Shown one piece after another: positions 7,559-50,800 of a DNA stretch of 60,200 bases. The notes beneath the pieces were generated by a model, which made no database searches, was not told the origin of the DNA, and was given only the letters and a program-made list of their open reading frames with translations. A program made the translations under genes and the position numbers. The stretch covers positions 1 through 60,200 of the forward strand of contig QILQ01000011.1 in the NCBI GenBank assembly GCA_003233455.1, read 5' to 3'. The stretch is from Candidatus Zambryskiibacteriota bacterium. GTDB taxonomy: Bacteria; Patescibacteriota; Minisyncoccia; Phycocordibacterales; WO2-35-19. The first letter of the stretch is position 1; each line of letters starts with the position of its first letter.

Positions 7559-7621
7559 AATTATACCACATTTATTCCTAGGAAGAGGGGAACCCTCTTG
7601 TTTTTGAGGTGTGTTATAATT
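7559..7621. repeat. about 60-bp palindromic element copy A1 (divergent -10-like arms around a GC hairpin)
   Basis: aattataccaca...ggaagagggGAAccctctt-gttttt...tgtgttataatt; arms are inverted repeats with 1 mismatch; lies between divergent genes. Confidence 0.8.
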
Positions 7622-7667
7622 TTTTTAATTTGGAAATAAAATTTTTTTATTGTAAAATAGTAATGAG

Positions 7668-22534: not shown

Positions 22535-22595
22535 ATTATACCACACCCTAAAATGAAGAGGGTTCCCCTCTTTCTTTTTTAAAATATGGTATAAT
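22535..22595. repeat. about 60-bp palindromic element copy A2 (terminator-like core plus -10-like arms)
   Basis: attataccaca-ccctaaaat-gaagagggTTCccctctt-tctttttt...tatggtataat; downstream of the helicase and upstream of the cupin gene. Confidence 0.8.
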
Positions 22596-22629
22596 AATTG
22601 TGAATTATTATTAATTAATAAAATAAAAA

Positions 22630-31193: not shown

Positions 31194-31251
31194 CTACACC
31201 ACACTTCAAAAGTATGAGGGTTCCCCTCTTCTTTTTAGGATGTGGTGTAAT
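31193..31251. repeat. about 60-bp palindromic element copy A3
   Basis: actacaccaca-cttcaaaagt-atgagggTTCccctc-ttcttttt-agga-tgtggtgtaat; starts at the murG stop codon. Confidence 0.8.
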
Positions 31252-31290
31252 TAAATTTTTAATATTCTAATATCTGATATAATTGAAATT

Positions 31291-33961: not shown

Positions 33962-34004
33962 AAATAATTATTAACTAATTTTAATTTAATTTATTTATAA
34001 AATA

Positions 34005-34259
34005 ATGAAAAATAAAAAATCCGGATTTATATCAATAATTTTGATTGTAGTGGTCGCTTTAGTGATACTTAAGTATGTCTATAACATAGATGTAATCGGT
34101 TTTTTAACTCAGGGCAAATTTAAAGAATTTTTAGACCAATTTTATAATTTAGGAAATAAAGGTTGGGAAAAATATAATGATATCGTTATTAAAATTTGGA
34201 GTTATGTTATTGAATTCATAAAAAATATAGCCACTAAAATAATAGCGAAAACAAAATGA
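34005..34259 (+). CDS. small single-pass membrane protein (hypothetical)
   Basis: 84-aa ORF with TM FISIILIVVVALVIL. Confidence 0.45.
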   Translation: MKNKKSGFISIILIVVVALVILKYVYNIDVIGFLTQGKFKEFLDQFYNLGNKGWEKYNDIVIKIWSYVIEFIKNIATKIIAKTK

Positions 34260-34340
34260 TAATTATCAGTCGGGAAGAATTTAAAAAATTATTTTTAAAT
34301 AACTACCTAAAAGATATATTGTGCGACGTTAATATGAAGT

Positions 34341-34817
34341 CTACTTCGTCGCCAAACTTTTATATTTAGAATAAGCGGTAGTATTTCCCCAACACGAGAT
34401 AGAAGATTTCCAAGGCTTGACTCCATATTTCTCAAAAAGAACTCTGGCGTATGAAGTATTTCCTTTTAAAGTAAAAATATTATAGCCGAATCTAACCGAA
34501 CTTTTATTATGATAATATTCGTTGATTTGCATTACTCCCCTATCTGATTTATTTTGCTCGCCACGAATAGCCTTACCATTAGCGTCATACTGACGAAAAC
34601 GAGATTCGCACCTGGCAATTTCAATCATAATTGGTATGTCAGAAAAATAATTTCTAACATATTCTTCCACTGTTATACTTTTCTTAATTTTACTGATATC
34701 TTTTTTTGGTTGAGATTCCAGAGGTAATACTTGAATAATCGCCTCGGGAACATCGGGAGGTAAAAATGATGCCTTACCAAAACCTGTAATACTTGACGCA
34801 ATCATCATAAACCCCAA
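34341..34817 (-). CDS. lysozyme-like / lytic transglycosylase domain protein
   Basis: IEIARCESRFRQYD...SDRGVMQINEYYH resembles the catalytic-Glu SLT/lysozyme-like motif. Start uncertain (TTG at 34817 or ATG at 34808); the hydrophobic stretch continues upstream. Confidence 0.65.
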   Translation of the reverse strand: MGFMMIASSITGFGKASFLPPDVPEAIIQVLPLESQPKKDISKIKKSITVEEYVRNYFSDIPIMIEIARCESRFRQYDANGKAIRGEQNKSDRGVMQINEYYHNKSSVRFGYNIFTLKGNTSYARVLFEKYGVKPWKSSISCWGNTTAYSKYKSLATK

Positions 34818-35086
34818 AGCGGTAGTTTGAAAAATAAGCCAATTGTTTAATTTTAATTCTTATTTTAATTCTATCTATTCTCCATCTCTTAATTAAAACA
34901 AGTCAAGATATCAGTCAGATAAACTTCAAGCGCGAACCTTAAATTTATTTTTGCAAATAATTTAATAAGTATGCTTGAGCTGAAAAATATCTCTTTAACA
35001 ACAAAATCCAGCATTTACTGGACTCACATATAGTATAGCATTTTTTAATATTGCTGTCAATAAATTTATATATTGGTATATTTATC

Positions 35087-35725
35087 TTAAAACTCCCTAT
35101 ACTTCGGATCCACAATAAAGTTGGCGTAAACGGTTTTGGAAGAGTTTATAAAGATAGGACATTGTCCTTTACCGGAACAAGCTCCGCTCCAACCGACAAA
35201 AACTCTGCCGACAGCGGGAGTGGCGGTTAAAGTAACCCATATATTAGCCTCATAATTATTGGCACAAGTGGGACCGCAAGCTATACCGCTAGGGCTGCTG
35301 GTTATTATCCCCTGCCCCGATTTAATAACATTTAGATTGAAAGATGGAGAAGCCACATTTACAGTAATATGTTTAGTGACTGGACCAGGATTGCAAGCAA
35401 TAGTGTATATTTTGGTACTTGTTAAACTGCCGGTGTTTAGAGAACCGCTACCATTGGGATAACCTCCGATAGTGGCTGGCGGAGTAATGGAACAAGAAGT
35501 GGCTCCCGAATATGACCAACTTAAATTGGTTCCATTGTTAGGATTTGGTAAGTTTGTGTTATTGGCGCTTATAGATACGGTAGCACTAGGTGGAGCTTGA
35601 CAGGATAAATCAGTGCTCCCAACATAATCTTTCCAAGCATTGGTATTAGGATCTTTAACAGTAAACCACCAAGTATAATGCTGACCGGGAGAGTAGTGCT
35701 GATTTGTGCCGTAATACCTCCCGAA
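35087..35725 (-). pseudogene. C-terminal continuation of the same surface protein in another frame (Ig-like segment plus divergent InlB B-repeat-like domain)
   Basis: My translation of the shifted frame is YYGTNQHYSPGQHYTWWFTVKDPNTNAWKDYVGSTDLSCQAPPSATVSISANN...GQGIITSSPSGIACGPTCANNYEANIWVTLTATPAVGRVFVGWSGACSGKGQCPIFINSSKTVYANF. It is open from the TAG at 35726-35728 down to 35087. Confidence 0.65.
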
Positions 35726-37320
35726 CTACAAGAATTTAAAGGCCAACAATAACTATTAGCTCCCGGATTCATCCTCACATAATACGGATTATATCCGCTG
35801 GCTGTCCAGCTGACATTAGCTTGAGTATATGGAGCTGGGCAGGAGCCTGTTAAATTAGTTGGAGTAACAACTCCTCCGGTTACCGTTACATTACTCCAAC
35901 TGCCACAATTGTTGTTTTCGTTTGATTCAGTAATAACTCCTGTATTGGTAGGTGAAGTTTTATCAGCACAAGCCCTAACAGAATATGTTCCAGTGGAGGT
36001 AAAGGTATAAGTGGGAGAAGTAGCGGTATTATTCGCTCCGGCAGCTAATATTGACATTGGAGTGGCAGTCAGATTAGTTATAGAACCTCCTCCTCCGCTA
36101 GCGGTAGCCACTTGAAAGAAATTTGAGAAACTGCTTCCGGTGGAACCCATTCCTTGATTTGCAATAATTGAGCTAAATGTTTGAGCGACATTCACCACAG
36201 CGATATTTGGTGAAGAATTGGCTGCGGTTAGATCTGGGGAAGGTGAATTAACAGAGCTAATAATTAACGATGACGAATCAAAACCGCTTAACACTCCGCT
36301 TGTTCCAGTCACTTTTATTATATTTGAAGTTGGAGGCGAAGAAGCGGTATTCGTTACGGCAAGAATAAGTGTTGAATAACTATTCGCCGGAACAAAAGTA
36401 GTAGAAGGTAAACTACAGTTCGCACTTGAAGGACAACCTGAAATTGCAAGCGAAACATTGCCGGAAAATCCTCCTACAGAATTAACCATCACCCCATAAG
36501 TAGCCGCATCGCCTTGATATATAGTTTGCATTATCGGTAACATTGAGATGTTAAAATTTGAAGTGGTACAATCTGCATTGGTAGTACATCCCGGAGTACA
36601 AGACCCCCCTAGATGAAAACCTCTTTCTACTGGCGGTACTTGTTGGATGCAGGAGTTTCCTGAACAAACATTATTATAAGTTGGACCTATTTGATAACAC
36701 CTGCCACCTATGATAGGTGGCGACCCATATCTCTGACATTTACCTGTACACAAATCATAGGTTTGAAAATTACAATATTGGTCTCCCAATGGACGACCTA
36801 TTTGTGCTGGGGGGCAATTCCCTCCTGTAATACACAGTGTATCACCGTTAGAATAAGTATAACATTTACCCGGAGTGGTACCGTTCAAACAAGTTGTTAA
36901 ATTTGGCTTGCCGGTACAGAATTTGTTGACAGTAACTGTTACATTAGCTAAATTACCCGTTTCCACCCAAGAATTATCCACATTGCGAATTGTGTAAGTA
37001 TATGTTGAAGGTGCTGACCCAGTAGTTAAATTCCAGTCAGTCGCACTGTCGTTTGGGCTTTGGTTGCTCCAAAATACTCCATTTTTATAAAGCTTGACTA
37101 TATTATTTGAATTAGATGTCCAACTTATAGAGGGACTACAAGGTTCAATACAAGATTGTGGGTTAGCATTGATACTGGCTTGAGGTGTTTGAGCTAAAGC
37201 TATTTTTGTTTCAAAAGTTCCATATAATAAAATAGTTCCTAAAATTAAAACAAAAAATCCAAGAAACAATAAAATTTTTCCTATTTTCATTTTCCAAAAC
37301 ATTTTTTTTAAGGTAAGCAT
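35569..37320 (-). CDS. large secreted Cys-rich surface protein, N-terminal 583 codons (CARDB-like domain); frame is lost near 35715-35725
   Basis: Signal/TM MKIGKILLFLGFFVLILGTILLYG, Cys-rich block, CARDB-like DLTAANSSPNIAVVNVAQTF...NQGMGST...ESNENNNC. The last about 50 codons (ITAQISTTLPVSIILGG...) look like out-of-frame read-through. Confidence 0.7.
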   Translation of the reverse strand: MLTLKKMFWKMKIGKILLFLGFFVLILGTILLYGTFETKIALAQTPQASINANPQSCIEPCSPSISWTSNSNNIVKLYKNGVFWSNQSPNDSATDWNLTTGSAPSTYTYTIRNVDNSWVETGNLANVTVTVNKFCTGKPNLTTCLNGTTPGKCYTYSNGDTLCITGGNCPPAQIGRPLGDQYCNFQTYDLCTGKCQRYGSPPIIGGRCYQIGPTYNNVCSGNSCIQQVPPVERGFHLGGSCTPGCTTNADCTTSNFNISMLPIMQTIYQGDAATYGVMVNSVGGFSGNVSLAISGCPSSANCSLPSTTFVPANSYSTLILAVTNTASSPPTSNIIKVTGTSGVLSGFDSSSLIISSVNSPSPDLTAANSSPNIAVVNVAQTFSSIIANQGMGSTGSSFSNFFQVATASGGGGSITNLTATPMSILAAGANNTATSPTYTFTSTGTYSVRACADKTSPTNTGVITESNENNNCGSWSNVTVTGGVVTPTNLTGSCPAPYTQANVSWTASGYNPYYVRMNPGANSYCWPLNSCSSGGITAQISTTLPVSIILGGLLLKILIPMLGKIMLGALIYPVKLHLVLPYL

Positions 37321-37480
37321 ACTTAAATTTTATCTTTAACGACCTTTAACTTACATTTTTAAGTTTCTATTTTATTATACAATATATAATTCGTTATAAC
37401 ATATATAAAAATGTTAATAACTTTATAAATCAAAAATAATAGTAAAACCACCATATGTGTGTATACATTACCACTGACAG

Positions 37481-37509
37481 TTGACAAAAAAATGAATTTA
37501 TAATATAGT
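37481..37509 (+). promoter_or_regulatory. near-consensus sigma-70 promoter TTGACA-17-TATAGT, bracketed by the inverted repeat actgaca/tgtcagt
   Basis: TTGACA at 37481-37486 and TATAGT at 37504-37509, spacer 17 nt; lies just upstream of the GC-rich ORF. Confidence 0.5.
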
Positions 37510-37542
37510 GTCAGTTAGATGGGTCCAAGGAGGGCTCTATAT

Positions 37543-38442
37543 ATGTTCTCTCGAAAAATCACCTATTTGGCGATGTTGGTCATTCTGCTGTCATGGCCGA
37601 TCATGGCAGTATCCCGTGGTGGCGAACACCCTGTCATCAACAGTGGCGCTTGCACAGCCACGACCCAAAACCTCCCTCGCGGAGGGGAGGGGTGGATTAT
37701 CCGGTTTACCCAAACCGGTAACACCGTGCTTCGCGCACGCGATCTCGGGTTTCCGCCGTTCCACCTGAACGACGGCGGATACGCACCGGTCCTTAACTCG
37801 GCTCATCACCGGCCGGTGTTTACCTGCACACCAAACGAACTTTACGTTCTGATTTACCAGACGGAAAGGATGTTTGGCGGAAATGAAAGTTGGAGGGAAA
37901 TCAGAACCCAACTTTACCGAAAAGGTATTTGGGATGGGTCATCCCAAGCGGAGTTGGTGTATCAGACACCGCTCTCAACCGAGCGGATTGGCGACGAAAA
38001 CTTCGCCATCCCACTGACAAACTCTGATGTCCGGATCGGTCGCGCTTACGCGCTTACCGGTCTTGTCGCTCAGAAAAATCGTGCTGTCCTCTTTGGGCAG
38101 TTCGAGATTCTGGATGACCAACAGGCGCGTACCTCATACGCCGCCCTCGACCTTTCTGTCAACGGTCCCGCGACTCTCACTTTTGAGTCCGGACCCGCTG
38201 ACATTGCGCAGTCCGAATCGGTCTGCGTAACCCTGAACGAGCTGTTTTTTGTCCGACGGATTGGTAGATTATACACAACCTATCAGGTTGACAGCAAAGG
38301 GTTTATCACTCCAAAGCTGTTCAACTGGTCGCCTGTCCGCGTGGAATGCGGACCCGGCAACGCGACCATAATCCTCTCCTCTAGAACATCCGGTGGGAAG
38401 AGACGGCGCATCGGCATACCGTCAACAGGGCGCGGGAGGTGA
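37543..38442 (+). CDS. secreted hypothetical protein encoded by a strongly GC-rich (foreign-looking) segment
   Basis: Open frame of about 300 codons in GC-rich DNA, AGGAGG at 37528-37533 is 9 nt before the ATG at 37543, signal-peptide-like MFSRKITYLAMLVILLSWPIMAVSRG; no family recognised. Confidence 0.6.
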   Translation: MFSRKITYLAMLVILLSWPIMAVSRGGEHPVINSGACTATTQNLPRGGEGWIIRFTQTGNTVLRARDLGFPPFHLNDGGYAPVLNSAHHRPVFTCTPNELYVLIYQTERMFGGNESWREIRTQLYRKGIWDGSSQAELVYQTPLSTERIGDENFAIPLTNSDVRIGRAYALTGLVAQKNRAVLFGQFEILDDQQARTSYAALDLSVNGPATLTFESGPADIAQSESVCVTLNELFFVRRIGRLYTTYQVDSKGFITPKLFNWSPVRVECGPGNATIILSSRTSGGKRRRIGIPSTGRGR

Positions 38443-38563
38443 GCCATGATCTCCCCGCCCAAAAAAAGAGGCGAGGCCAAACTCGCCCAAGAGAACTCAC
38501 TTTTGCGGTCGTTTTGTATCCCAACAATCGGCCGTTTCTTTTTTATAAAAAAATGATAGAGAT

Positions 38564-38600
38564 AGAGGGTTCCCCTCTTACTTTTGAGGTGTGTTGTAAT
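38564..38600. repeat. palindromic element copy A4 (core plus right arm only)
   Basis: agagggTTCccctct-tactttt-gagg-tgtgttgtaat; sits at the 3' boundary of the GC-rich segment. Confidence 0.7.
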
Positions 38601-38769
38601 AATTATTTTTAATTTTTTAACTCAAAACTTTCCTAAAGGGAGACCTTGGATAATTTAAATTAATCCCCTTTCTATCAATTTTTTGATGTTGATAACGTCT
38701 ATTTTAAATCCAATACTTAAAAATATCTTAGCAAAAAATTAAATCTAAATTGTGTTATAATGTATAATT

Positions 38770-39354
38770 ATGAACAAAATTCCTAAAATATTAATACAAT
38801 ATGGAAAACTTATAGACCCTTTATATATATTTTATTGCCAAAACAACCCGAGTTTAAAAAAAAGAGGTTGGAACGATTGGATTCCTCCAAAACCAAAAGA
38901 GTTAAAAAGACGCATTTTAGCATACAAAAAAGAATGGAAGAAATATGAGAAAAAAGTACTTACTGAAATTTCTGGATCATTAGAACTTTCTTTTAACAGA
39001 GAGGTTATAGATGTATTTATTGTAAGTGGTATTTCAAGAGCAACAAGTCACCCACTCATTATTAAAAGTGGTTTTAAACCAAAAGAGTTTGTGATTACCC
39101 TTGTTCACGAACTTATCCATCAAATTTTTGATGGAAAAGATCTTAAATTTAGCAAAGTTCTCTTAATTAAAGATAAAGACAAAACAGTAAGTAATCATAT
39201 TCTGGTTTATGCTTTACTTCGTAAAATATTTAAAAATAAACCCGAAATGCTTAAAATAATATCTGATATAAAATATAATAAAGATTATAAAAAAGCTTAT
39301 GAAATTTCCAAACCTTACGAAGATATATTGAAATTTTTTAGAAAAAATAAATGA
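38770..39354 (+). CDS. hypothetical protein with HExxH motif (putative zinc metallopeptidase-like)
   Basis: LVHELIHQIF; no signal peptide; TGtTATAAT lies 8 nt before the ATG. Confidence 0.55.
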   Translation: MNKIPKILIQYGKLIDPLYIFYCQNNPSLKKRGWNDWIPPKPKELKRRILAYKKEWKKYEKKVLTEISGSLELSFNREVIDVFIVSGISRATSHPLIIKSGFKPKEFVITLVHELIHQIFDGKDLKFSKVLLIKDKDKTVSNHILVYALLRKIFKNKPEMLKIISDIKYNKDYKKAYEISKPYEDILKFFRKNK

Positions 39355-39391
39355 GCCTCTTCAAACCGAAAAGAGACTCATTCACTTGCAC

Positions 39392-39529
39392 CTAGTAGTC
39401 TTGGTCAGGACTGTCAGCATCGCTGTCAGAACCGTGATCACTACCTAAGACTGAATCGTCATCATCGCACCGATAAGCGGAACAAATCGCATCATCGGCT
39501 GGATCTCCGAAACTATAAGGCATCGGCAT
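39392..39529 (-). CDS. small highly acidic protein (45 aa), not in the ORF track
   Basis: AGGAG lies 8 nt before the ATG. My translation is MPMPYSFGDPADDAICSAYRCDDDDSVLGSDHGSDSDADSPDQDY. The local G+C is well above that of the neighbours. Confidence 0.4.
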   Translation of the reverse strand: MPMPYSFGDPADDAICSAYRCDDDDSVLGSDHGSDSDADSPDQDY

Positions 39530-39550
39530 AGTATATTTCTCCTTCCCTCA

Positions 39551-39575
39551 AGGAGGACCTAGCTAACGTCCTCCT
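39551..39575 (-). promoter_or_regulatory. perfect 8-bp hairpin AGGAGGAC-N9-GTCCTCCT in the leader of the small acidic ORF
   Basis: aggaggac ctagctaac gtcctcct, 22 nt upstream of the start codon; function unknown. Confidence 0.35.
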
Positions 39576-39616
39576 ATCCAAAGTACAGATTGTACAAACC
39601 CTGTCTATTCAAAAGT

Positions 39617-39654
39617 AAGAGGGTTCCCCTTCTACTTTTGGAGTGTGGTGTAAT
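39617..39654. repeat. palindromic element copy A5 (imperfect core plus right arm)
   Basis: aagagggTTCcccttct-acttttgga-g-tgtggtgtaat. Confidence 0.65.
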
Positions 39655-39711
39655 AATTTTATTATCTCATCTGTATAAGTTTTCTTCCTTTGGCAGTTTT
39701 CATCTGATATA

Positions 39712-39738
39712 CAAAAAAAATACCCAGAAATTGGATAT
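39712..39738 (-). terminator. intrinsic terminator of the ABC-exporter operon
   Basis: Minus-strand RNA AUAUCC-AAUUUCU-GGGUAU followed by U8, about 20 nt after the stop of 39759..40256. Confidence 0.55.
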
Positions 39739-39758
39739 TTTTCTTCAAAACATTTTTT

Positions 39759-40256
39759 CTACTTATTAATCATTACAGTCAAATCCACTGAAACTTTATG
39801 ACTGACGCTATTTTCGGAAATAGTAATTAAAAACCGTTGACTGTTATCAGCTTTTGTCGCCACCAAAGAACGCAAGTTTTTGTTTTCCAGTGATGAAAGA
39901 ATTTTCCAGCCGTTATTTTTTAAATATTTTTTGTAGATAGTATAATTTTCATCAACGCTTTTTTTAGAAATAAACTTTCTGGTGTATTGGGTTACTCCTG
40001 GTTTATCAATTGAAGTGATTGTATCATTTTCAGTAATTAGAGTATTTTTTTCTAAAAGGCTATTTACTGGAATGGCTGACGGTAATTTGTTTATGTTAAG
40101 CTTATTTACCGTAATATTTTGAGGTGCAGTTATTGGTGTAAATAATCCCCTATTCACTTCTGATCGCCCAAAAATAGAATAGACTATAAAAACACCTGAT
40201 AAAATAATTAAAATAATCAATCCAACAACAAACTTTTTATTTTCAATTTTTTTCAT
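39759..40256 (-). CDS. hypothetical membrane-anchored protein (last gene of the exporter operon)
   Basis: N-terminal TM FVVGLIILIILSGVFIVYSIF; 165 aa. Confidence 0.6.
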   Translation of the reverse strand: MKKIENKKFVVGLIILIILSGVFIVYSIFGRSEVNRGLFTPITAPQNITVNKLNINKLPSAIPVNSLLEKNTLITENDTITSIDKPGVTQYTRKFISKKSVDENYTIYKKYLKNNGWKILSSLENKNLRSLVATKADNSQRFLITISENSVSHKVSVDLTVMINK

Positions 40257-43918: not shown

Positions 43919-43967
43919 CTTACTTATTTCTTATAATAATAACATAATTTCTCCCACCTCTCATTTA

Positions 43968-44008
43968 AGGAAGAGGGTTCCCCTCTTCCTTTTGACTTGT
44001 GGTATAAT
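43968..44008. repeat. palindromic element copy A6 (upstream flank of the second Y1 transposase)
   Basis: aggaagagggTTCccctcttcct-tttgact-tgtggtataat. Confidence 0.8.
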
Positions 44009-44021
44009 AATTATTAACAAA

Positions 44022-44702
44022 ATGAAAAACAGAGATTATAAAAAATTTGAAAAAGGTGGTATTTATCATGTTTATAACAGAGGTGTTGGCAAAATGAAAA
44101 TATTTGAAGACAAAAAAGATTTTAGAGTATTTTTATATAGATTAAAAGAAAATTTATTCCCAGAAAAAAATAAAATTAAAAATTCTATCCCGAAAAAGAA
44201 AATTTATAATAGAAAATTACTTCCGCCAAAATCTTTTAATCTTATTTGCTACTGTTTAATGCCAAATCATTTTCATTTACTGATGCAACAGAAAACAGAT
44301 CTGCCTATAAGCAAAATAATCTCAAAAATATGTACAGGATATTCAATGTATTTCAATAAAAAAAATAACCGTGTTGGCTCATTATTTCAAGATGCATTTA
44401 AAGCTGTAAGAATTGAAAACAATGAACAATTATTATGGACATCATTATATATTCATGAAAATCCTGTAAAATCTGGAATAATCAAAAAACTTGAAGATTA
44501 TGAATGGAGCAGTTTTTTGGATTACACCAAATCAAACCCAAATACTTTATGTAAAAAAGATATATTACTTGGTCAATTTATTTCACCTAAATCATATTTG
44601 AAATATTTCAAAAATCCGGAAGAAAATAAAAAGGCTCAAAATCAAATGATTGGTTTTCAAGATTTATTTATTGATGAAGATTTCTTAGAAAATTTCTTTT
44701 AA
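44022..44702 (+). CDS. IS200/RayT-like HUH-Y1 tyrosine transposase (second copy)
   Basis: IYHVYNRGV, MPNHFHLLM (HUH), LYIHENPVK (catalytic Tyr). ATG at 44022 chosen; the longer track ORF from 43809 overlaps the permease gene. Confidence 0.75.
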   Translation: MKNRDYKKFEKGGIYHVYNRGVGKMKIFEDKKDFRVFLYRLKENLFPEKNKIKNSIPKKKIYNRKLLPPKSFNLICYCLMPNHFHLLMQQKTDLPISKIISKICTGYSMYFNKKNNRVGSLFQDAFKAVRIENNEQLLWTSLYIHENPVKSGIIKKLEDYEWSSFLDYTKSNPNTLCKKDILLGQFISPKSYLKYFKNPEENKKAQNQMIGFQDLFIDEDFLENFF

Positions 44703-44705
44703 TAA

Positions 44706-44766
44706 ATTACAACACAATTTTTTTTAGGAAGAGGGGAACCCTCTTCCTTTTTACTTGTGGTATAAT
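44706..44766. repeat. about 60-bp palindromic element copy A7 (downstream flank of the second Y1 transposase)
   Basis: attacaacaca-atttttttt-aggaagagggGAAccctcttcct-ttttact-tgtggtataat; stem and right arm match A6 but the loop is flipped. Confidence 0.85.
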
Positions 44767-44771
44767 AATAC

Positions 44772-45308
44772 TTATTTCAAACCTTTGCAATTTGCAGCGG
44801 GGAGATAGCCGGAAGCACGAGCTTCTTTAATTGAATTAAAAGTTATCAGATTTTTGGGAGAAATTCGTTTAGCTCCGGAGCACCACGGATAATGATATTT
44901 GGCACCATTTTTTGATGCCACTACTTGTCCTGAATTTGTTTGTAATGAGTTTGTTGAATTTATAGAAGGACTTGCTCCCACCACTGCAGTTTGTTGGATA
45001 GAATGAATAGAAGGTGTATTTTGAGTTTCCTTTTTAAAGTAAGGGTGATTAAGGGATGAGTTATTCAAAATCCTCACTGGAGGTCTCCTTTCTTGCAATA
45101 CCGAAAGTCTACCCAAAGAAAAAGATATTATCGCTATAAAAATAATAATAAAAGGAATAAAATACCTGCCATTTAAAAAATTTATCAACTCCCCTTTCCA
45201 ATCATTTCTTTTTTTCGCTTGCTCCGATATTGCCGAAAGATTAAAATCTTCTTCTTTTACATATTCCTCTATTTCTTCTTTTTTCTCTTTTTTGGGAGAT
45301 TTAATCAT
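44772..45308 (-). CDS. membrane-anchored protein with C-terminal Cys-containing Ada-Zn/sunset-like domain
   Basis: TM FIPFIIIFIAIISFSLG; C-terminal ASKNGAKYHYPWCSGAKRISPKNLITFNSIKEARASGYLPAANC. Confidence 0.5.
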   Translation of the reverse strand: MIKSPKKEKKEEIEEYVKEEDFNLSAISEQAKKRNDWKGELINFLNGRYFIPFIIIFIAIISFSLGRLSVLQERRPPVRILNNSSLNHPYFKKETQNTPSIHSIQQTAVVGASPSINSTNSLQTNSGQVVASKNGAKYHYPWCSGAKRISPKNLITFNSIKEARASGYLPAANCKGLK

Positions 45309-50415: not shown

Positions 50416-50434
50416 TTTTATTTTTTTATAATAT

Positions 50435-50800
50435 CACCTCACCCCATTTAATCTTTAGTATAATATTAAGCATATCGCTTCCCCTCTCCTTACTAAGGAG
50501 AGGGGCTAGGGGTGAGGTGGTAAAATAATGGGTAGAGGGGTGAGGGTGATAAATAAAATTTTATTTTATTTAGTTTTTATTCAAAAACCTCACCCCATAT
50601 AAATTTATTACAAAGTTTGAGTTTCTCACTTCCCCTCTCCTTACTAAGGAGAGGGGCTAGGGGTGAGGTGGTAAAATAATGGGTAGAGGGAGGGGGGGTG
50701 AAGTGGTAAATAAAAGAGTAGGGGTGAGGTGGTAAAAAGAAGAGTAGGGGTGAAAGTGAAATAGTAGGTAGGGGGGGTTAGGGGTGAGGTGGTAAAATGA
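50435..50800 (+). repeat. G-rich repeat region: two 151-bp tandem units with nested hairpins, plus degenerate GGGGTGAGGTGGTAAA copies
   Basis: An identical 62-nt block occurs at 50478-50539 and 50629-50690. cacctcacccc (50435-45) pairs with ggggtgaggtg (50509-19) around the hairpin cccctctcctta-c-taaggagagggg (50481-50505). The GGGGTGAGGTGG motif recurs at about 50720 and 50780, with a variant at about 50747. Confidence 0.85.

Follow-up and report, generated by a model that had tools for sequence, protein, structure and literature searches.

A GC-rich gene for a predicted exported protein, apparently of foreign origin, at an old locus in an AT-rich Parcubacteria-type genome

What is a block of DNA with 53.8% G+C (37519-38555) doing between flanks of 20.1% and 26.1% G+C, and why has it not come to resemble its surroundings? 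The block, here called the island, lies in a window of 60,200 nucleotides (the whole stretch of DNA analysed; 33.5% G+C), whose host, judged from its genes, is a Parcubacteria-type CPR bacterium: the bacterial genes of the window include DnaK, MurJ and AlaRS, and its LepA is 66% identical to those of Zambryskibacteria and other Paceibacteria MAGs. A tRNA and tmRNA scan of the window found none, and no site near the skew switch matched the general dif consensus with up to 3 mismatches. An earlier note on this DNA had suggested that the island may be a recently acquired gene for an effector or surface protein from a high-GC donor, and every feature that it listed was found where it had been placed (Table 1).

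The change in composition is as abrupt as the earlier note had claimed for the stretch just before the start codon. In 100-nt bins, G+C runs at 0.19, 0.18 and 0.22 over 37200-37499, at 0.43-0.61 over 37500-38499, and at 0.38, 0.25 and 0.15 in the next three bins. The 1-kb values of the window have a mean of 0.336 (sd 0.036); the highest (0.544) starts at 37501, and the second highest, outside the island locus, is 0.436. The edges of this composition match those of the transcript, with an AT-rich promoter followed by a GC-rich body and 3'UTR up to the terminator. Within the open reading frame (ORF) 37543-38442, G+C at codon positions 1, 2 and 3 is 0.55, 0.49 and 0.61, the third-position value (GC3) comparing with 0.12-0.37 in all remaining credible ORFs of the window. 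Codon usage, whose comparison with the rest of the DNA the earlier note had advised, is equally atypical: the codon-adaptation index of the island gene, computed with the 52 other window ORFs as the reference set, is 0.409, the lowest of 53 (next 0.587; median 0.707).

Table 1. Features of the island and its immediate surroundings (window positions).
Feature	Position	Strand	Remarks
Divergent neighbour, large secreted CARDB-domain protein	35569-37320	-	Pfam CARDB, E = 4.5e-6
Inverted repeat ACTGACA/TGTCAGT	37473-37479 / 37509-37515	.	Brackets core promoter; read directly
Sigma-70-type promoter TTGACA-17 nt-TATAGT	37481-37486, 37504-37509	+	11 of 12 consensus positions
Shine-Dalgarno AGGAGG	37528-37533	+	9 nt upstream of ATG 37543
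CDS, 299-aa predicted secreted protein P0001, stop TGA	37543-38442	+	Substitution pattern, ORF length, GC3 0.61
Signal-peptide-coding part (predicted), about residues 1-24	37543-37614	+	Less GC-rich, no excess RNA structure
Basic C-terminal tail, residues 279-299, ending IPSTGRGR	38377-38439	+	Predicted disordered
GC-rich 3'UTR: hairpin, middle hairpin, terminator stem, T-run	38443-38546	+	Conserved with L001
57-nt palindromic element copy	38554-38610	+	Hairpin AGAGGGTTCCCCTCT, T-run, then TGTGTTGTAAT; right edge of island

The ORF 37543-38442 truly encodes a protein and is under purifying selection. Against P0002, a 62%-identical orthologue carried on a contig of 108 kb, substitutions at the three codon positions number 0.29, 0.23 and 0.58 per site and dN/dS is about 0.12, which bears out the coding nature proposed earlier; at the DNA level, coding identity to the orthologue is 63%. 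The stop-free run of 307 codons is longer than in all 5000 shuffles of the segment (maximum 257), and the view that such a frame would hardly arise by chance holds. Translation is assigned to ATG 37543 rather than the in-frame ATG 37519, because the Shine-Dalgarno sequence serves the former and the alignment with the first residues of the orthologues begins there. The TGA stop is shared by 4 of the 53 window ORFs, the island gene included; reading through it as a sense codon was rejected, as TGA ends further window genes and the read-through peptide is not hydrophobic.

The gene, which to the earlier note looked fully equipped, has the complete set of signals of a self-contained transcription unit: a near-consensus promoter, a Shine-Dalgarno sequence and a terminator. 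The promoter (37481-37509) is the top-scoring promoter-like site within 37200-38800, its TTGACA occupies the same position in the orthologous loci L001 and L009, and the stretch from the -35 element to the ATG is 75% identical between the window and L001 (z = 4.4). In L001 and L009, too, a Shine-Dalgarno-like GGAGG purine run stands before the start. The inverted repeat that brackets the promoter is not kept in either of these loci and may thus be a matter of chance. Similarity between the window and L001 runs from promoter to terminator, ends at the T-run, and leaves nothing past it. The 3'UTR is 76% identical to that of L001 (z = 9 against shuffles) and folds with z = -3.6. Its first hairpin, GGCGAG-N6-CTCGCC (38470-38487; hairpin 38469-38488), scores as a minus-strand terminator because an A-run precedes it. 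The plus-strand terminator lies further on, where GCGGTCG (38505-38511) and CGGCCGT (38529-38535) form a second stem ahead of the T-run; the small middle hairpin is predicted in the window fold only. Both the GGCGAG hairpin and the palindromic element that the earlier note had placed behind the gene are present; the element has 7 copies in the window, every one at a gene end, and the stem of the copy at the island scores as terminator-like. Two further ORFs were considered and set aside: (i) a small one from ATG 38446, behind GGGAGGTGA, which is conserved as nucleotides and runs through the terminator, but is not conserved as a peptide because the alignment has gaps whose lengths cannot be divided by three, and (ii) a 45-aa acidic ORF (39392-39529), for which the related loci hold no orthologue.

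The product, P0001, has at its N-terminus two K/R residues ahead of a 13-residue hydrophobic core (Kyte-Doolittle 2.39), and this signal-peptide layout is common to all 8 family members examined, in agreement with the earlier description of the N-terminus. P0001 is predicted to be Sec-exported, with about 275 residues left after cleavage near residue 24, an approximate position placed by inspection. The basic tail (residues 279-299) has pLDDT values below 50. P0002, P0003 and P0017 likewise end in GRGR or GRGRGR; this conservation is at the protein level, because it persists even with AT-rich codons. Four cysteines are invariant across the family and no D, E, H, K or R is. The lack of any invariant charged residue or histidine makes ligand binding more likely than catalysis, and P0001 may be an extracellular binding protein.

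The earlier note had recognised no family for the product, and P0001 indeed matches no curated one. Models of Pfam, NCBIfam, PADLOC and PHROGs gave no match to the protein or its family; Pfam and NCBIfam searches returned no propeller-repeat family (WD40, Kelch, TolB and similar), the window protein and three members having entered the Pfam scan; and PDB searches by sequence, with 2-sequence and 9-sequence profiles, retrieved nothing significant. The earlier note had also proposed structure prediction. An AlphaFold2 model from 2 sequences was unusable (pLDDT 43); that from 9 sequences is all-beta (pLDDT 73.9, pTM 0.72). Its 10-residue blocks average pLDDT 74-92 across about residues 31-250, and its DSSP pattern suggests about five four-stranded units. 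In Foldseek, every top match is a beta-propeller (probability 0.95-1.0; best E = 3e-4), the best matches having TM-scores of 0.24-0.40 (below 0.5) and sequence identities of 6-14%. Thus modelled, P0001 is probably all-beta and beta-propeller-like, the fold assignment being weak.

About ten relatives of P0001 are found among some 15 billion proteins. A word-indexed search returned P0001 itself and one relative, an exhaustive HMMER search of 1.84 billion representatives gave five matches (one a spurious repeat protein), and profile searches contributed a further five family members. P0005 (2303 aa), a repeat protein of eukaryotic appearance by sequence, was discarded because repeats had inflated its match, which spans 37 residues. 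No relative appeared among the GTDB species representatives, where two peptide patterns from P0001 and P0002 were sought, nor among plasmids and phages (tblastn), IMG/VR or the JGI metagenome collection. Conservation of the protein extends, in other genomes, to identities as low as 20%. Four relatives are syntenic orthologues in other AT-rich contigs, so that the same neighbours surround the gene in five lineages with copies 30-62% identical. The divergent CARDB-domain gene, itself of native composition (GC3 = 0.28), is matched by a homologue, identically placed and oriented, in L001, L007 and L090. In L001 and L009, the orthologue adjoins a second, GC-elevated gene for a 264-aa protein that also has a signal peptide; its identification as a diverged relaxase like that of L004 was dropped, as BLASTP found no similarity. 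More distant relatives lie in L004, L005 and L006, contigs of about 55% G+C from JGI 3300047388 and 3300062568 that match the gene's own G+C (in L004, 55.5% for the contig and 56.1% for the gene). The L004 gene has an HTH gene on one side and Replic_Relax, TraG and integrase on the other, and that of L005 adjoins a large serine recombinase. Conjugation or integration genes thus stand beside the relative in 2 of the 3 such contigs examined.

A foreign, higher-GC origin of the gene is plausible, as the earlier note had suggested: the relatives outside the AT-rich lineage occur only in contigs of about 55% G+C with matching composition, and their position beside conjugation or integration genes in two of the three contigs supports such an origin. 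Recent acquisition, by contrast, is not supported, because four relatives share the locus in other AT-rich contigs; with the same neighbours in five lineages and copies only 30-62% identical, this part of the earlier claim falls. Four-fold sites are largely turned over between the window gene and its nearest orthologue, with 41% identity where chance alone would give 27%. In the window, neither mobility genes nor a tRNA gene nor direct repeats flank the island, and the nearest transposase-like gene (Y1, 44022-44702) is 5.6 kb away. The island looks foreign in origin and anciently acquired. Patescibacteria are known to have received genes from other phyla (PMC12455944).

Taken together, the island is likely to be one foreign-type transcription unit for a Sec-exported protein, anciently gained from a GC-richer bacterium and now fixed. 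On this reading, an ancestor of these CPR lineages would have acquired the gene from a GC-richer bacterium, probably by way of a mobile element, and the second secreted-protein gene of L001 and L009 possibly came along in the same transfer; the gene would afterwards have become a fixed resident. A single ancient transfer is read from about ten sequences, because closer GC-rich relatives are unsampled. The function can be sketched more tentatively. The signal peptide may be cleaved outside the membrane, and the mature chain may form a small, about five-bladed beta-propeller-like domain with two disulfides from the four invariant cysteines. The basic, RG-rich tail could keep the protein on the anionic cell surface, where P0001 and the product of the adjacent CARDB gene might together take part in contact with a surface or a partner cell.

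An ancient transfer does not account for everything. The sister orthologues L007 and L090 are AT-adapted, with GC3 of 0.25-0.26, compared to 0.53 in L001 and 0.61 in the window, and the two pairs have equal synonymous depth (four-fold-site identity 0.41 for window and L001, 0.43 for the AT-rich pair). The coding sequence of the window copy also folds far in excess of expectation. Its minimum free energy is -366.8, compared to -309.6 +/- 7.8 in synonymous-codon shuffles (z = -7.3), and z is -6.5 both when shuffling is confined to 50-codon blocks and when dinucleotides are shuffled. Summed over 120-nt windows, z reaches -9.5, with 13 of 27 windows below -2 and the first at -1.1. The 23 control genes range from -3.1 to +1.3, and twelve native genes of the window span -2.4 to +1.3; the orthologues give -4.6 (L001), -2.7 (L009), -3.2 (L090) and +0.2 (AT-rich L007). 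A single neutral acquisition followed by amelioration leaves both the GC3 split and the excess folding of the window copy unexplained.

One explanation is that G+C is kept by selection on the transcript, the silent-site G+C building dense predicted local hairpins that might serve a long half-life, slow translation favouring export and disulfide folding, or a second, RNA-level role. Some Parcubacteria would then hold silent sites GC-rich, with a hairpinned transcript and a conserved structured 3'UTR, and sister lineages would have dispensed with the trait. The folding z-score far beyond the 23 controls is in keeping with this, as are the excess folding of L001 and its lack in AT-rich L007, the coincidence of the composition switch with the transcript ends, the loss of GC-richness in the sister orthologues at a synonymous depth at which the window and L001 kept it, and a 3'UTR conserved more (76%) than the coding DNA (63%). 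The details of the structure speak otherwise. Where L001 differs, 24% of the pairs of the window fold are canonical, compared to 30-38% in slid controls, and no compensatory double changes are evident (31% canonical compared to 18-44% in controls; 4-5 sequences). A conserved mRNA structure was rejected accordingly, for want of covariation. The antisense strand reaches nearly the same folding excess (z = -5.4), and the folding signal is for this reason one of inverted repeats in the DNA, not clearly of sense-strand RNA. Moreover, the values of L009 and L090 are inside the range of the controls or at its limit, so that the strong outlier is one sequence only. Selection on the transcript, and with it the maintained trait in some Parcubacteria, is thus an unlikely explanation.

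Alternatively, the GC-rich alleles may be newer than the locus, GC-rich copies having repeatedly come in from GC-richer relatives or donors or displaced the resident copy, with the AT-rich orthologues as the old residents. Within one syntenic locus, the sister pairs do have very different GC3 values, Paceibacteria span a wide range of G+C as judged by the numbers in MAG names (FULL_51_21, FULL_33_17), and a second GC-elevated gene adjoins the copy in L001 and L009. At four-fold sites, however, the window and L001 differ as much as the two AT-rich orthologues do; any replacement would thus predate their split and leave retention still unexplained. Homologous replacement also predicts edges inside the flanking genes, whereas the edges found are at promoter and terminator; the AT-rich promoter is itself conserved with L001, and the search of about 15 billion proteins disclosed no closer GC-rich donor sequence. 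Repeated replacement is improbable on these grounds. The excess of inverted repeats may instead be mutational, template switching in quasi-palindromes perfecting repeats at unconstrained sites to no function. The near strand symmetry of the folding excess agrees with this, as do its confinement to one lineage, the non-conserved positions, and the count of perfect stems of at least 8 bp (3 found, 0.26 expected). Template switching, however, leaves unexplained both the retention of G+C and why this gene alone in the window is affected, against the twelve native genes, and appears more improbable still. Finally, the thought that the segment is a structured non-coding RNA with a fortuitous ORF, or an assembly chimera, which its GC-rich and hairpin-rich character inside an AT-rich genome could prompt, is scarcely credible: Rfam gave no match at gathering threshold in the whole window and only chance-level matches in 37300-38800 (E up to 10), covariation is lacking, the third-position substitution excess, the dN/dS ratio and the conservation of the protein down to 20% identity are those of a coding sequence, which excludes the structured RNA that the earlier note had named as its own refuting alternative, and both junctions, for which that note had sought independent support, are covered at 99.8% identity by a 12.9-kb assembly from another sample, with orthologues between the same neighbours in four other datasets.

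CPR bacteria presumably live attached to other cells, and no function is known for most of the proteins that they secrete or display on their surface. P0001 represents a tiny, unnamed group of exported proteins, predicted to be propeller-like. The conserved pairing with the CARDB gene, together with relatives on mobile elements of GC-richer bacteria, singles P0001 out as a specific candidate for a factor of cell contact that came by gene transfer. In the window copy, foreign composition goes together with an extreme folding signal at silent sites; if that signal is selected, this would be a case of a reduced genome preserving the composition of one individual gene.

The island and its product resemble several known systems in part. 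In being exported and having propellers as all its top Foldseek matches, P0001 is like the small secreted or periplasmic beta-propellers, and its predicted all-beta fold, which may have about five four-stranded sheets, recalls the TolB C-terminal domain and the five-bladed propellers of the glycoside hydrolase families GH117, GH130 and GH159. It departs from these by TM-scores of at most 0.40, identities of 6-14% and the lack of a family model match; the P0001 family has no invariant acidic residues able to form a site like that of the GH117, GH130 and GH159 hydrolases, and neither its four invariant cysteines nor its GRGR tail belongs to those propeller families. The C-terminal motif (IPSTG in P0001, LPSTG in P0002) resembles the sortase signal of LPXTG substrates in a secreted protein; P0003, however, has IPRIG, and the motif was ruled out as a sortase signal since no hydrophobic anchor follows it: GRGR alone stands between IPSTG and the TGA, and translation past the TGA yields no hydrophobic membrane segment. 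GC-rich structured non-coding RNAs of AT-rich bacteria usually come to light when intergenic regions are screened for high G+C. The island is likewise a sharp GC-rich block with strong predicted secondary structure, but its coding signature is clear, no Rfam family matches it, and its predicted base pairs neither covary nor are conserved. Under the classical amelioration model, acquired genes of atypical composition drift toward that of the host. The island gene fits the islets of this model in G+C and codon use grossly off the host, in its patchy distribution, and in relatives that are compositionally native elsewhere, on integrative or conjugative elements; the L007 and L090 orthologues have drifted fully to host composition. 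It differs in edges free of mobility genes, tRNA genes and repeats, in a locus that is old and syntenic with an undrifted window copy, and in composition edges that are the ends of the transcript. The locus thus offers a clean natural test case for amelioration, with one gene at one locus that is host-adapted in two lineages and foreign in others.

The GC-rich ORF is a real gene, foreign-looking and long resident, whose product, P0001, is predicted to be exported and propeller-like and belongs to a new and very small family. A coding role, which the earlier note judged probable from a stop-free frame unlikely to arise by chance, is borne out by: (i) a stop-free run of 307 codons that is longer than in 5000 of 5000 segment shuffles, (ii) differences from the nearest relative, P0002 (62% identity), of 0.29, 0.23 and 0.58 at codon positions 1, 2 and 3, and (iii) a dN/dS of ~0.12. 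This coding signature argues against an RNA gene, as does Rfam, which returns no match at the gathering threshold and chance-level matches alone at E up to 10. A chimeric contig is likewise rejected, as both junctions, for which the earlier note sought support, and an identical gene are recovered in L003, an independent assembly from another sample (99.8% identity to the window over its 12.9 kb), and the same neighbors flank the orthologues in four other datasets.

The abrupt shift to GC-rich sequence described earlier has sharp edges. In 100-nt bins, the G+C content is 0.18-0.22 just 5' of the island, 0.43-0.61 over 37500-38499 and 0.15-0.25 by 38600. Segment 37519-38555 has 53.8% G+C versus 20% and 26% in the flanks and 33.5% in the window, and the island ranks first of all 1-kb windows (0.544 versus a mean of 0.336, sd 0.036). 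All three codon positions are raised in G+C, with a GC3 of 0.61 versus 0.12-0.37 in every other credible window ORF. A codon index trained on the other 52 ORFs places the gene last (0.409 versus a median of 0.707), and 41 of its 299 codons are host-rare (<5 per 1000). The window also has ordinary bacterial genes, among them DnaK, AlaRS, CysRS, LepA and MurJ. LepA is closest to homologs of Zambryskibacteria and other Paceibacteria MAGs (66%), which points to a Parcubacteria-type CPR bacterium as the host.

The promoter, Shine-Dalgarno, hairpin and palindromic element are all found where they had been placed from sequence. Similarity to the L001 locus, which encodes P0002, starts at the -35 box and stops at the terminator, with 75% identity from promoter to ATG (z = 4.4), 76% identity in the 3'UTR (z = 9) and no similarity in the 100 nt outside either end of the unit. 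The 3'UTR (38443-38546) folds into three hairpins, in which the closing helix pairs an A-run with a U-run (z = -3.6). A small ORF that starts at 38446 behind GGGAGGTGA is rejected, as its frame is not conserved. The inverted repeat that brackets the promoter is not conserved in related loci and may be due to chance.

Features of the transcription unit, the group A loci and the window
Feature	Position	Strand	Details
Start codon	ATG 37543	+	chosen over in-frame ATG 37519 (rejected)
Promoter		+	TTGACA, 17 nt, TATAGT; 11/12 positions match
Shine-Dalgarno AGGAGG	9 nt 5' of ATG 37543	+	
GGCGAG...CTCGCC hairpin, then palindromic element copy	3' of gene		
Terminator	last 3'UTR stem	+	GCGGTCG...CGGCCGT, T-run
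P0001	window		62% with P0002; GC3 0.61
P0002	L001		62% with P0001; GC3 0.53
P0003	L007		60% with P0017; GC3 0.25
P0017	L090		60% with P0003; GC3 0.26
P0004	L009		30-34% versus other four; GC3 0.68
Second convergent gene	L001 2501-3295	-	264 aa, signal peptide; GC3 0.40
Second convergent gene	L009 2374-3165	-	264 aa, signal peptide; GC3 0.50
57-nt element, 7 copies	7574-7630, 22547-22603, 31205-31261, 38554-38610, 39608-39664, 43962-44018, 44720-44776		
Palindrome GTGTCAAGGGGAACCCTTGACAC	4461, 24036, 50021		related to 57-nt element
IS200-like Y1 transposase gene	44022-44702		Pfam PF01797, E = 1.7e-9
Second GC-rich patch	39385-39575		about 50% G+C
ORF in second patch	39392-39529	-	45 aa, very acidic; MPMPYSFGDPADDAICSAYRCDDDDSVLGSDHGSDSDADSPDQDY
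G-rich repeat cluster	50423-50800		between CysRS gene and next gene

An exhaustive HMMER search that covered about 15 billion proteins through 1.84 billion representatives yields four real clusters, to which profile searches add five further family proteins. Group A comprises the five AT-rich loci: the window, L001, L007, L090 and L009. Identity between the P0001/P0002 and P0003/P0017 pairs is 45-47%. At the window, L001, L007 and L090 loci, the family gene is paired head-to-head with a CARDB-type surface-protein gene, homologous in all four, and is followed downstream by a small AF_1845-like gene, likewise homologous, on the opposite strand. It follows from the shared neighbors that the common ancestor already carried the gene here. 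A convergent, GC-elevated gene for a secreted protein without a family match is common to L001 and L009 and absent from the window; this second gene suggests that the ancestral foreign islet included at least two secreted-protein genes. NCBI files the 3.5-kb contig of L007 (JBQSKD010000175.1, assembly GCA_054387635.1) under an archaeal MAG (Candidatus Heimdallarchaeaceae archaeon). All three genes on this contig are syntenic with the CPR window (45-58% identity), and the archaeal label likely reflects mis-binning.

Group B (P0006-P0010) is more distant, with 20-29% identity to group A, and resides on contigs of ~55% G+C that the genes match in composition. The L004 gene has as neighbors an HTH gene and genes for a Replic_Relax protein, a TraG-type coupling protein, a primase and an integrase, and the L005 gene adjoins a large serine recombinase. 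This native composition and mobile context support a GC-richer source and a mobile element as vehicle.

The two sister pairs of group A are equally diverged, with four-fold-site identities of 0.41 (0.27 expected) and 0.43 (0.29 expected). Four-fold G+C is 0.62 and 0.52 in one pair and 0.23 and 0.27 in the other (host native 0.32). Such a split, with full adaptation on one branch and hardly any change on the other, is not what a uniform neutral process should produce from a single acquisition. The window coding sequence also folds in excess: its global MFE is -366.8 versus -309.6 +/- 7.8 for synonymous-codon shuffles (z = -7.3), with z = -6.5 for shuffles within 50-codon blocks, -6.5 for dinucleotide shuffles and -9.5 for summed 120-nt windows. 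Control genes range from -2.2 to +1.0 by the global measure (16 genes) and -3.1 to +1.3 by the summed measure (23 genes); by the latter the orthologues score -4.6 (L001), -3.2 (L090), -2.7 (L009) and +0.2 (L007). The excess is distributed over the entire gene, which has three perfect stems of at least 8 bp (0.26 expected), and the antisense strand folds nearly as well (z = -5.4). The pairs are not kept in L001, and compensatory change is absent between the two. Two readings fit the five sequences: selection may act on silent sites to keep the transcript compact, whatever its exact shape, or a mutational process may be building inverted repeats.

The protein has no match in curated libraries (Pfam, NCBIfam, PADLOC, PHROGs and PDB sequences). 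All eight family members examined have a signal-peptide-like N-terminus. The family has four invariant cysteines (C37, C95, C228 and C269) and lacks any invariant D, E, H, K or R. AlphaFold2 with nine sequences (pLDDT 73.9, pTM 0.72) predicts an all-beta fold of about five four-stranded units with a disordered basic tail. Foldseek against PDB and viral models finds beta-propellers exclusively (TolB, the oligopeptidase B propeller, five-bladed glycoside hydrolases, Kelch and WD proteins), with weak matches (best E = 3e-4, TM-scores <= 0.40). The C-terminal GRGR is retained even with AT-rich codons and is, thus, a protein-level feature. A sortase signal is rejected, as no membrane segment follows IPSTG. 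The product would be a propeller-like binding protein that is exported, stapled by disulfides and kept at the surface by its basic tail.

The earlier note took the gene to be one for a secreted protein that may have been acquired recently, possibly from a host organism, a reading that is partly right. Secretion stands on the N-terminus and foreign origin on composition, codon index and the GC-rich relatives in mobile contexts; recency is not supported, as diverged orthologues occupy the same locus in group A. As a kind, this is an ordinary horizontally acquired secreted-protein gene, of which the retained composition and silent-site folding signal merit a further look.

Other features of the window include a 19-nt deletion at 35692 relative to the otherwise identical L003, within the CARDB surface-protein gene (35569-37320, -), which encodes 583 aa in the window versus 750 aa in L003; strain variation, gene decay or assembly error could account for it. 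Ahead of the 45-aa ORF of the second GC-rich patch stand an AAGGAGA Shine-Dalgarno and a GGAGGAC...GTCCTCC hairpin; this ORF has no orthologue in related loci and no Rfam match. The GC skew flips at about 34000-40000 (left about +0.1 to +0.16, right about -0.08 to -0.17), where gene orientation also converges (nearly all plus up to 33961, mostly minus from 39759). Both are consistent with a replication terminus, and the island would therefore lie in the terminus region; a search for the general dif consensus that allowed up to 3 mismatches came back empty. The G-rich cluster has six irregularly spaced copies of a unit of about GGGGCTAGGGGTGAGGTGGTAAAAT inside a 124-nt duplication. The 57-nt element, a hairpin AAGAGGGTTCCCCTCTT followed by a T-run and TGTGGTATAAT (which resembles an extended -10 box), is at gene ends in all seven copies. 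Two copies flank the Y1 transposase gene, an arrangement also seen for REP elements and the RAYT transposase that goes with them.
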